Shown here: one piece after another, positions 59,904 to 61,261 of the stretch
Layout of the letters: the number at the start of each line of letters is the position of its first letter
Position numbering within the stretch: the stretch's first letter is position 1
DNA from: Clostridia bacterium
GTDB taxonomy: Bacteria > Bacillota > Clostridia > Oscillospirales > CAG-272
Direction: 5' to 3'
Assembly (NCBI GenBank): GCA_017455185.1
Contig: JAFTBN010000049.1
Span: forward strand, 1-61,261
Length of the DNA: 61,261 bases
Position numbers and translations under genes: made by a program
Notes under the pieces: generated by a model
Database searches by the model: none
What the model was told of the DNA's origin: nothing
The model's input: only the letters and a program-made list of their open reading frames with translations

Positions 59904-60467
59904 TTATTCGAAAAGCCGGTCAATCCTGTGCTCGGCTTCCCGCAGAATGGCCTCCACGTCCGCGCCGTCCAAATCCAGGCCTTCCGCCTTGATCTGAAGG
60001 ACTTCCTCAATCCCGTAAAAGCCACGGGACAACGCTTCGACATAGCCGTAACCGAACGCGTCAGGAAGATGACATCCGCCCGATGTCGTCAGGTAAAACA
60101 GTCTTTTTGCGCGGCACAGTCCGACCGGTATGCCGTCTTCCCCGTACCGGAATGTAATTCCCACCACGTTCACCTGCTCCAGATACTGCTTCAGAGCTGC
60201 CGGGAAAGACAAATCCCAGCAAGGCGCCGCGATGACGATTTCATCTGCCTCCGCAAACTGACGGGCAAAATCAAAAAACGGGGCGTCCGTCCATCCCCTG
60301 GCAAGCAGACCGTCCCTGCGTTTCAGAAAGGATTCATCCGCCACCGGAAACCGGGCCCGGTCAAGTTTCAATGTCCGATCCGGTGCTCCCAAATGCGCAA
60401 ACAACCGGTTTGCGAGCCGGCGGGTTCTGGACTCTTCCCTCACACATGCATCAATAAACAGTCTCAT
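59904..60467 (-). CDS. FMN-dependent NADH-azoreductase / flavodoxin-2 family
   Basis: LFIDACVREESRT, AAPCWDLSFPAALK, TTSGG; no RBS upstream. Confidence 0.88.
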   Translation of the reverse strand: MRLFIDACVREESRTRRLANRLFAHLGAPDRTLKLDRARFPVADESFLKRRDGLLARGWTDAPFFDFARQFAEADEIVIAAPCWDLSFPAALKQYLEQVNVVGITFRYGEDGIPVGLCRAKRLFYLTTSGGCHLPDAFGYGYVEALSRGFYGIEEVLQIKAEGLDLDGADVEAILREAEHRIDRLFE

Positions 60468-60473
60468 TCAATC

Positions 60474-60482
60474 TGGTATAAT
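60474..60482 (+). promoter_or_regulatory. Extended -10 box at the IS110 left end
   Basis: TGgTATAAT with no -35 in the flank, consistent with a circle-junction promoter. Confidence 0.6.
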
Positions 60483-60489
60483 TAAATCA

Positions 60490-60875
60490 GCCCCCAGCAA
60501 CCGTTTAATCATACTTACCTTTCTAGTAGATTTTCGCACGATGATGTGCTACAATTACAGTACTTTTACCATATAGGAGGATAAGGCAACGCTGGGGAGC
60601 GACCTGAGCGCCTATATGGGTTTTGCGGGGGATAATATCCTCTTGCGAAATGGGTATTATCCTTTGGAAAACAATGCGATAAACCCATTTCAACAATTCT
60701 GGAAAAGTTCCGTAGTCCACTTCATTCTGTGTACAGCGTTAAACGACTGGTTAAAGGAGAGTATGGCTACGGCTTTTCTTGTATATGGTGATAAGTTGGT
60801 TACAGCGCAATGCGACTGGTAATAAGGAACCAGAATACATGAGAAAAGACCCGTAGATTGACTCGGAACTTTTTC
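60490..60875 (+). ncRNA. Putative IS110 bridge/seek RNA
   Basis: Multiple perfect helices and a duplicated TACAGCG-N5-CGACTGGT motif upstream of the recombinase. Confidence 0.7.
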
Positions 60876-60894
60876 ATTTTTTAAGGAGGCACCT

Positions 60895-61261
60895 ATGATC
60901 TACGTAGGCATCGACGTCGCATCAGAAAAGCATGACTATTTCATGATGCAGGGTGAAACTGGGCAAGTGTTCAGTCGCACTTCAACCACCGTTTCGAATG
61001 ATTCAAACGGTTACAAAAAGCTCCTCAAAGACATTTCAGACTTTTGCGGAGCTACTGGAGATTCCAATGTGCGCATAGGACTGGAATCCACCGGTATCTA
61101 CCACACTAACATCACCACTTTCCTAACAAGCAATGATTACAAAGTGATGATAATCAATCCGATTTTAACCAATATGGCTCGCAAAGAAGCAAAGCTGCAC
61201 AGCCAAAAAACAGACAACTTGGATTCACAAACCATTTGTAAGTATTTGATAAATCATCCCG
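60895..61261 (+). CDS. IS110 DEDD recombinase/transposase, truncated by the window edge (not in the ORF track)
   Basis: AAGGAGG RBS; MIYVGIDVASEKHD...GLESTGIY...INP...KTDNLDS. Confidence 0.95.
   Translation, partial: MIYVGIDVASEKHDYFMMQGETGQVFSRTSTTVSNDSNGYKKLLKDISDFCGATGDSNVRIGLESTGIYHTNITTFLTSNDYKVMIINPILTNMARKEAKLHSQKTDNLDSQTICKYLINHP

Follow-up and report, generated by a model that had tools for sequence, protein, structure and literature searches.

The bridge RNA of IS621, the closest described counterpart of the system treated here, is encoded in the left non-coding end of the element, upstream of the gene of a DEDD recombinase (Durrant et al. 2024, PMC11208160). This RNA presents two stem-loops with internal loops, the first variable and matching the target, the second conserved and matching the joined ends of the element; the core is the dinucleotide CT, and in IS110 elements a junction promoter arises from a -35 box in the right end and a -10 box in the left end. 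All these features have their counterparts in an insertion sequence (IS) of the IS110 family that lies at the right edge of a 61,261-nucleotide (nt) contig of a Clostridia bacterium (JAFTBN010000049.1, assembly GCA_017455185.1). This contig, analyzed at its full length, is called the window in what follows; in it, the bridge RNA of the element is preceded by a second structured RNA unit, which we call the module.

There are also differences with respect to IS621. The RNA of IS621 has 177 nt and starts at the junction promoter, the joined right and left ends measuring 298 bp, whereas here the bridge RNA lies ~230 nt inside a left end of 422 nt, behind a second, internal promoter and a foreign module of 130 nt (PMC11208160). 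Furthermore, a common closing stem surrounds both loops here, unlike in IS621 (PMC11208160). The 5' stem-loop of IS621 is, as the module is, a hairpin located 5' of the target-binding loop; no sequence relation between the two was found. Unlike that stem-loop, the module possesses a promoter of its own, combines a conserved interior of 33 nt with a further conserved block, and occurs without an IS110 gene.

A recent preprint reports 86 bridge-RNA covariance models built from clustered intergenic regions adjacent to IS110 genes, many of which depart from the shape of IS621 and yet covary with target and donor (Sun et al. 2026, 10.64898/2026.10.21.760802). The 3' domain of the window fits such structural variety. 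The text of the preprint, as far as it was accessible, mentions neither a shared 5' module nor a link to other IS families, and the clade of the window may be among its clusters (10.64898/2026.10.21.760802). As the structural variety of bridge RNAs is already documented, the new part is the fusion with a widespread, unannotated RNA module, and the module is the more interesting object of the two. Our reading, to which we assign a probability of about 0.8, is that the locus would carry a bridge RNA of a known kind, fused in a clade-specific manner to an undescribed RNA module of mobile elements, and that it would not represent a new recombinase subtype.

Results and discussion

The left end of an IS110-family element

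The element's left end is non-coding over positions 60473-60894 (422 nt) and is followed, from 60895, by an open reading frame (ORF) whose 122 visible residues match DEDD_Tnp_IS110 (PF01548, E 1.3e-22, residues 4-119). This match bears out the assignment to IS110 proposed in an earlier note on the window, which had been made from the sequence without database searches. Only 367 nt of the gene precede the contig end at 61261, and the genome (92% complete; 0 matches to PF02371) does not contain the remainder in assembled form. Five genomic relatives were recovered using the N-terminal protein as query (67-96% identity), and many more later. One of them, L003 (96% identical), encodes a full recombinase of 399 amino acids (aa) with PF01548 and PF02371, and the DEDD domain together with PF02371 (C-terminal Tnp, Transposase_20) was present in all the relatives tested (L003, L069 and L124).

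The alignment of the relatives showed an abrupt onset of conservation at CT followed by GGTATAATTAAATC (60473 in the window), the left junction being the flank, then CT, then GGTATAAT. The right ends of the relatives, located 3' of full-length genes, read ..TTGAC(T)TTTTTATAGTTGG directly before CT, which corresponds to ..TTGAC(T)-N-AGTTGG, CT and the flank. These right ends (TTGACTTTTTTATAGTTGG before CT) supply a TTGAC(T) -35 box, and the joined ends of the circle would present TTGACT-17 nt-TATAAT, a predicted junction promoter for which the right end was taken from the relatives, the window's own being unassembled. The ends thus resemble those of IS110 elements in having no terminal inverted repeats, a short core (CT) at both junctions and a junction promoter, with the right junction again known from the relatives, in which the element measures ~1.6-1.75 kb.

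The earlier note had called the bridge-RNA-like region in the left end unusually long, which holds when the element is compared with its own relatives: left ends measure ~422-433 nt in the clade of the window, ~315-320 nt in the sister clade, and are markedly shorter in a distant clade, where the first bases of the element are found near the start of the 233-nt extract. Folding of 60470-60895 gave a minimum free energy of -129 kcal/mol versus -103.5 +/- 5.9 in 100 shuffles (z -4.35; 0/100 as good). Since this value beats all the shuffles and, more importantly, the helices covary in homologues, the structure goes beyond chance. Taken together, the region is in all likelihood the left non-coding end of an IS110-family insertion sequence, with two predicted RNA units in tandem on the + strand.

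Structure and guides of the bridge RNA

All the helices and repeats listed in the earlier note were found when the sequence was read again. In the 3' domain, AAAAGTTCCG (60703-12) pairs with CGGAACTTTT (60864-73), a long stem joins 60767-84 to 60835-56, and the repeat TACAGCG-N5-CGACTGGT occurs at 60732-51 and 60801-20, followed in each case by AAGGA (60754-58 and 60824-28). The repeated hairpins are indeed present, but the inner stems assigned to them (CGTT/AACG and CGCA/TGCG) were overstated, as they would leave a loop of one base; the realistic hairpins are CAG+CG/CG+CTG, with loops of 5 nt or 3 nt.

When an alignment of five full recombinases was used to scan metagenomes, 80 loci (35-69% identity) were obtained, and 47 distinct upstream regions were aligned. 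Pairs were counted for the structure read from the window, and the same structure with slid partners served as control. The cells were paired in 80-82% of the cases in the read structure versus 32-47% with slid partners, and 275-281 cells were changed on both sides versus 38-87. Pairs with both sides changed were 9/9 in the closing stem, 5/5 in hairpin 1, 4/7 in the stem of the donor loop and 3/5 in hairpin 2.

The guides were compared with the DNA at the junctions, which could be called in 34 of the 47 loci on the left and in 16 on the right; L093 and L099, whose right ends were matched only with a mismatch, were left out of the right-guide test. RNAs and flanks were randomly re-paired in 10000 shuffles, which ignore the kinship among loci, so that the figures are indicative and not probabilities. 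The left target guide (5' side of loop 1) matched the left flank at 154 of 238 non-core positions, compared with 98.1 +/- 6.2 in the shuffled pairs (0/10000 reached the observed value). For the right target guide (3' side of loop 1), set against the right flank read as its reverse complement, 78 of 112 positions matched, versus 43.9 +/- 4.8 (0/10000). Guides and flanks switch together, as in GGAG-CTCC, CGAG-CTCG, GAAAG-CTTTC and GGGGAAG-CTTCCCC. Regarding loop 2, the left donor guide AGUUGGUU mirrors the right end of the relatives, AGTTGG before CT, and the left end, CT followed by NGT, is the pairing partner of the right donor guide ACNAG (in the window, ACCAG with CT followed by GGT). The base of this guide opposite to the first IS base was complementary in 40/40 loci, and G/C, A/U, C/G and T/A were all seen.

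Hence, at the level of sequence, the 3' domain presents every trait of a bridge RNA of the IS110 group: two stem-loops with internal loops whose structure is conserved, a first loop complementary to both target flanks and covarying with them, and a second loop complementary to the element's own ends. The covariation of the helices and that of the guides with the DNA agree with the note's assignment of 60703-60873 to the bridge RNA. By analogy with IS621, the sides of the loops would pair with the target flanks and with the joined ends of the element around the CT core, and the DEDD recombinase would thereby insert the circular element.

The segment GCUAC(GG) located between the loops (60765-60772) can pair with near-identical GUAG sequences at 60712-60717 or at 60851-60856, and both pairings covary. 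This suggests a bridge RNA with alternative conformations.

Anatomy of the module

The 5' part of the left end, ~60547-60691, is best read as a separate module, formed by an extended -10 box and a covarying hairpin (P1) with a near-invariant loop. The earlier note had seen ~200 nt of additional structure upstream of the bridge RNA, and a separate structured module does lie within it. A -10-like TAnnnT box was located at a fixed distance from the hairpin in 47 of 54 loci, extended by TG in 41 of them. Within the interior of P1, two short helices, GG/CC and CGCU/AGCG, accompany a tetraloop of purines. Changes on both sides affect 8 of the 10 pairs of the outer stem, whose compensatory variants in the IS110 clade include CCAUAUAGG/CCUAUAUGG, CCGCAGCGG/CCGCUGCGG and CCACACAGG/CCUGUGUG. 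Pair 28-49 of the module is G-U in 14 sequences and A-U in 7; because of this alternation, and given also the -10-like box at fixed distance, we take the + strand as the RNA strand.

In the rest of the module, the stem of 60647-55 with 60683-91 covaries in the IS110 left ends, where reading of the alignments showed GAAAUGGG/CCCAUUUC, GGAAUGG/CCAUUCC and CGGAC/GUCCG. A second conserved block, GCG.UAAACC (GCGAUAAACCC in the unit of the window), was found 66-96 nt past the motif in both IS110 and non-IS110 contexts, with a variable hairpin in between.

The search for relatives of P1 relied on exact matches to the 25-mer 60586-60610, and exact matching inflates the apparent invariance; therefore a covariance model of the hairpin (R1) was built and scanned over 151 genomes of the window's family. 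It matched in 18 of them (E <= 0.001). In these hits the inner helix CGCU/AGCG is replaced by CGCA/UGCG, UGCU/AGCA or CGGU/ACCG, and the inner helix GGG/CCU by GAG/CUC, GCG/CGC or GUG/CAU. As the hits carry compensatory changes in both inner helices, the hairpin is a real structured RNA family.

The module has no counterpart among the 4227 models of Rfam 15: neither the window nor one stand-alone copy gave a match at E <= 10, no match reached the gathering score in 15 module loci, and none was obtained at E <= 0.1 in the viral and plasmid loci. In addition, a survey of the literature at the level of titles, on structured RNAs with IS21, IS3 and IS30, revealed nothing that matches it. Among known motifs, the K-turn, loop-E, HDV-like folds, c-di-GMP-I-like aptamers and mimicry of the CRISPR I-E repeat handle (through AUAAACC) were considered; none fitted well and they were dropped. 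A pseudoknot of AGG/GGG with the distal CCC of AAACCC was also rejected, as A at position 28 gives A-C in six sequences and the local U49 pairs in 21/21.

The earlier note had further suggested a pseudoknot between GCTGGGG (60591-97) and CCCCAGC (60492-98). The two segments are complementary, but no compensatory change was seen. CCCCAGC was found upstream of the motif in 28 of the 54 tested loci, all of them IS110-type left ends except for one remnant of such an end. Because it lies upstream of the module's own promoter, it would be present solely in transcripts from the element-end or junction promoter, close to their 5' end. The long-range pairing is possible, and we regard it as a lead and not as a finding.

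Fusion of the module to the bridge RNA

The module motif was found in only 5 of the 80 metagenome loci. These five belong to the six loci closest to the query (63-69% identity), and in the remaining one, L068, no more than 53 nt are available upstream. In the sister clade (52-55% identity), TGTTATAAT is located directly upstream of the closing stem of the bridge RNA, and in the distant clade a -10 box directly abuts the bridge RNA. Judged by this distribution, the fusion of module and bridge RNA is clade-specific. Since the promoter abuts the bridge RNA in the clades without module, the module together with its -10 box takes the place of the bridge-RNA promoter in the clade of the window, where both the bridge RNA, ~230 nt away, and a second -10 box lie downstream of the junction promoter.

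This distribution bears on the proposal of the earlier note that the additional structure would define a candidate new programmable recombinase subtype, which we do not uphold. Under that proposal, the whole 330-nt region would be one enlarged bridge RNA, with the 5' hairpin as an extra domain for recombinase binding or synapsis. It should be noted that the module is kept throughout the IS110 clade with compensatory changes in its outer stem, that no terminator separates it from the bridge RNA, and that the IS621 bridge RNA likewise begins with a 5' stem-loop (PMC11208160). Nevertheless, the module occurs with its own promoter, and usually with its own terminator, in IS21, IS3 and Mu-like elements without an IS110 gene, and it is missing from the sister IS110 clades, whose recombinases are 52-55% identical and whose bridge RNAs have the same architecture. 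For these two reasons the module defines no new recombinase subtype, and we consider an enlarged bridge RNA very unlikely.

The two settings also differ in termination. A terminator-like hairpin with a T-run follows the module in 16 of 20 distinct stand-alone (non-IS110) contexts versus 2 of 16 IS110 left ends, one of the two being a deletion derivative; no terminator-like site was found in the window within 60380-60960. We propose that, in one IS110 clade, the module came to occupy the space from the bridge-RNA promoter to the bridge RNA, with loss of its terminator. As the module sits between promoter and bridge RNA without a terminator, the bridge RNA would be the 3' part of a module-bridge transcript.

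Could the module be a functionless passenger, the end fragment of another element captured once by the ancestor of the clade? Its restriction to one clade would fit, and decayed copies do exist (the deletion derivative L013, the remnants L028 and L040, and L163 at 37 bits). On the other hand, its interior is invariant and its outer stem compensated across IS110 lineages whose recombinases are 63-72% identical, the promoter is retained and the terminator is consistently lost. Since all four traits point to selection on the module within the IS110 context, a passenger is the most improbable of the explanations considered.

The available RNA data are contigs assembled from metatranscriptome libraries. 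One contig of 233 nt corresponds to 60701-60933; it spans the bridge RNA and runs 39 nt into the gene but lacks the module, a weak hint of a bridge RNA that exists separately from the module. Cleavage in the A/U-rich linker near 60700 would probably free the bridge RNA, the start of this contig being again a weak hint. A promoter directly upstream of 60701 (AACAAT) was considered and dropped, as it is weak and not conserved in homologues. Furthermore, several contigs in two RNA libraries match only the interior of the module and have unrelated flanks.

Several points weigh against the reading of a known bridge RNA fused to a separate module, besides the kinship among loci mentioned above. The left guide of the window matches its own left flank at 5/7 positions, and the right flank is not assembled; this guide also ends in GU, when 30 of the 34 rows of the left-guide test have CU. 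In L003 the left guide matches the left flank at 1/7, although its right guide matches the right flank at 7/7 contiguous positions (AGAGGAG with CTCCTCT). The mid-segment GCUAC pairs with the 5' GUAG in 83.7% of cells or with the 3' GUAG in 95.7%, and because of these two pairings the exact base of the two loops is left ambiguous. As regards the module, the exact-match search itself accounts for part of the invariance of the 25-mer, and a closing helix between its 5' leader GCUUU and the 3' block AAAGC was rejected, with 57% of cells paired and no double-sided changes. Finally, the libraries may contain DNA, and assembled contigs do not show RNA ends; the sole contig matching the bridge RNA (60701-60933) continues into the recombinase gene.

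Bridge RNAs are in development as genome-writing tools. A guide that is produced behind a foreign leader RNA is of interest in this respect, as a natural clade of this kind could show how expression and maturation of the guide are controlled in cells.

The module outside IS110

The exact 25-mer 60586-60610 was present in 55 stretches of a collection of species-representative genomes. Going by their record titles, the carriers include metagenome-assembled genomes (MAGs) of Clostridia, Chloroflexia/Anaerolineae, Thermoanaerobaculia, Armatimonadota, Desulfovibrionaceae, Desulfobacteraceae, Syntrophobacteraceae and the gamma-proteobacterial Methylovulum. Enough sequence upstream of the motif was available in 54 loci, and only 27 of these show the start of an IS110 left end there. 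Other loci adjoin IS21 genes (IstB, E 2.7e-70, and IstA) or IS3-type rve genes, and further neighbors are an rve+Mu-transpos_C gene with an AAA_22 partner and a gene for an HTH protein of 400 aa. One Chloroflexia contig carries three IS21 copies with the module just inside the terminal repeats, facing inward. The stand-alone copies resemble small RNA genes of ~105-190 nt, with promoter, hairpin and terminator. In view of these contexts, the module very probably constitutes a separate RNA family located at the inward-facing ends of several kinds of mobile elements, where it would be mostly a short RNA ended by a terminator.

Any role proposed for the module must explain its inward position inside element ends, its own promoter, an interior shared across phyla, and the nested terminator of the stand-alone copies. 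We would rank three roles: a leader or small RNA recognized by a host factor, control of termination, and a trans-acting or self-processing RNA.

The first of them, a cis-acting 5' leader or a small RNA recognized by a conserved component of the host, is possible, though doubtful. This component would set the fate of transcripts of element ends through stability, termination read-through or processing. An RNA hairpin that is near-identical across unrelated transposable elements of distant phyla and missing from Rfam bears the signature of something that engages a universal component, and identification of the module's partner could uncover a general strategy by which mobile elements handle transcription at their borders. 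In a broader formulation, the module would represent a structured RNA class that is ancient and so far undescribed, carried by mobile elements over at least five phyla; it would lie, facing inward, at the ends of IS110, IS3 and IS21, insertion sequences that form circles, and of Mu-like transposons, and would act through a universally conserved partner in the cell (RNA polymerase, a ribonuclease or a small ligand, for example). Here it would have been co-opted to couple the control of transcripts entering the element to the production of the bridge RNA. We put this forward tentatively, at somewhat less than even odds.

Control of termination would make the module a regulatory leader, a riboswitch-like sensor or a processive antiterminator, that gates inward transcription, here of bridge RNA and recombinase. 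Its anatomy is aptamer-like: stems that vary and covary surround conserved internal loops, and the distal strand is conserved as well. It always lies directly downstream of a promoter. Past the hairpin, the stand-alone copies carry a terminator that is itself nested in a longer helix of alternative pairing: GGCAGGGCAGAG of L014, for instance, can pair either with CUCUGCCC plus a U-run or with the later CUGCCCUGCC. However, no Rfam riboswitch or leader matches up to E 10, the module is not known to bind any ligand or factor, conserved sequence flanks the first terminator on both sides, which is unusual for an aptamer with its expression platform, and the IS110 form has no terminator to control. 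A regulatory leader therefore seems unlikely to us.

Alternatively, the module could be an independent trans-acting small RNA or a self-processing element, that is, a decoy for a host factor or defense system, or a self-cleaving or nuclease-recruiting 5' cassette, which merely shares a promoter with the bridge RNA here. The small-RNA-like appearance of the stand-alone copies would agree with this, as would a Thermoanaerobaculia repeat of ~270 nt that is little more than the module, the module look-alikes with unrelated flanks in two RNA libraries, and the start of the bridge-RNA contig at 60701, just past the module. Against it, an antisense target for the conserved loop was sought in the genome of the window and only chance 13-15-mers were obtained (best 15-mers, E 0.68), contig ends are not RNA ends, and no known ribozyme family matches. 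We regard an independent or self-processing RNA as rather doubtful.

The repeat just mentioned comes from a single Thermoanaerobaculia MAG. Its copies L010, L025 and L033 have a common unit from GGCTCCTCGCTG, ~85 nt upstream of the motif; L010 and L025 agree to ~150 nt past the motif, up to ..CCCATACTAAA, and then diverge, and L033 ends sooner. The unit looks like a short repeat of ~270 nt.

Another arrangement was observed in L158, with tandem module hairpins at 1501-1562 and 1642-1708, 80 nt apart, the outer part of the second having diverged. Three viral contigs (L143, L144 and L145) carry the exact inner 20-mer with quite different surrounding loops, and GATAAACCC downstream in two of them; one viral copy is located directly past an HNH-type gene and another between a ParA-like gene and a gene of 486 aa. 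The module family may thus be wider than its IS-end form. A 2.4-kb uncultured plasmid gave one weak match inside an unnamed coding sequence (62 bits with model R1), a context that is uninformative. L155 and L157 were considered as the 5' untranslated region of IS30 and dropped, as the downstream ORF is merely an HTH_38 protein of 87 aa.

In L011 (1-1407), the strand opposite to the module encodes, just past the module's terminator, the reverse transcriptase of a group II intron (RVT_1 + GIIM). Some bacterial group II introns target terminators, which would fit this arrangement. Decayed IS110 left ends that keep the module were seen in L013, L028, L040 and L030. In L013 the module is joined to the C-terminal third of the recombinase gene, and L028 and L040 break within or past the module. 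L030 is a left-end fragment upstream of an ORF of 416-422 aa, which by eye we take to be a tyrosyl-tRNA synthetase.

Target preference

Among the L003-L142 junctions, 44 of 48 distinct left flanks carry a CAT ahead of the core, at a distance of 4-14 nt and most often of 8 nt, compared with 8 of 48 in a control window located 20 nt further out. The right flanks start with CC... Because of the CAT before the core and the CC of the right flanks, the target corresponds to GGAG-spacer-ATG on the opposite strand. Judged by its junctions, this IS110 lineage targets the gap that separates the Shine-Dalgarno sequence of an opposite-strand gene from its start codon, and does so in antisense orientation. 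A survey of titles in the literature on IS110 and Shine-Dalgarno sequences gave no description of such targeting. Aiming at the gap between ribosome-binding site (RBS) and start codon would mean that a guide can be tuned to a generic feature of genomes and not to a single site.

In the closer clades, the left target guide starts with a conserved (U)UUCAU (60720-60725 in the window), which at the usual spacing of 8 nt would match ATGAAA, a common gene start. In L073, guide and flank match at 15 of 17 bases.

Features of the locus

The coordinates of the features discussed are collected in Table 1.

Table 1. Features of the IS110 left end and of its surroundings in the window
Feature	Position	Strand	Basis
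Flavodoxin-like (Flavodoxin_2/FMN_red) host gene	59904..60467	-	PF02525 E 3.4e-20; CAT 60465-67 adjoins core CT
Left copy of the CT core dinucleotide; IS body from 60475	60473..60474	+	Abrupt onset of conservation in homologues; right ends of relatives
Extended -10 box TGGTATAAT at the extreme left end	60474..60482	+	TATAAT preceded by TG
CCCCCAGC, complementary to GCUGGGG of the module hairpin	60491..60498	+	Sequence reading; upstream of motif in 28/54 loci
Internal extended -10 box of the module, TGCTACAAT; predicted transcription start near 60562	60547..60555	+	TAnnnT box at constant distance from the hairpin
Module hairpin P1: outer stem CCATATAGG 60569-77 with CCTATATGG 60611-19; conserved interior 60578-60610	60569..60619	+	Exact 25-mer matches; covariation
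Module remainder: hairpin 60625-46; stem GAAATGGGT 60647-55 with ACCCATTTC 60683-91, around a small hairpin and block GCGATAAACCC (60676-86)	60625..60691	+	Alignments
A/U-rich single-stranded linker from module to bridge RNA; possible processing site	60692..60702	+	Start of RNA-library contig (weak hint)
Putative bridge RNA; closing stem 60703-11/60865-73	60703..60873	+	Helix covariation, 47 sequences
Target-binding loop: left guide, 5' side, 60718-33; distal hairpin 1 60734-49; right guide, 3' side, AAAGGAG 60753-59	60713..60770	+	Guide/flank matches
Donor-binding loop: stem 60773-84/60835-48; left guide AGUUGGUU 60794-801; hairpin 2 60803-18; right guide ACCAG 60829-33	60771..60856	+	Match to element ends
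RBS GGAGG 60885-89 and first 122 codons of IS110-family recombinase, 60895-61261	60885..61261	+	ORF list, Pfam; contig end cuts gene

In the window, the element has hit the flavodoxin-like ORF 59904-60467: only 5 nt separate the insertion point from the start codon of this gene, and the IS therefore cuts it off from its presumed RBS.

No second copy of the left end was found in the genome of the window. Stretches that the RNA-library contigs leave uncovered were given no weight. Among the RNA libraries, X3 and part of X6 cover only the recombinase gene, and a contig of run X2 covers 60472-60660 joined to a different left flank, ..TTTTTCATCTTCT. Because of this flank, the X2 contig points to a second insertion of the same element in a related community.

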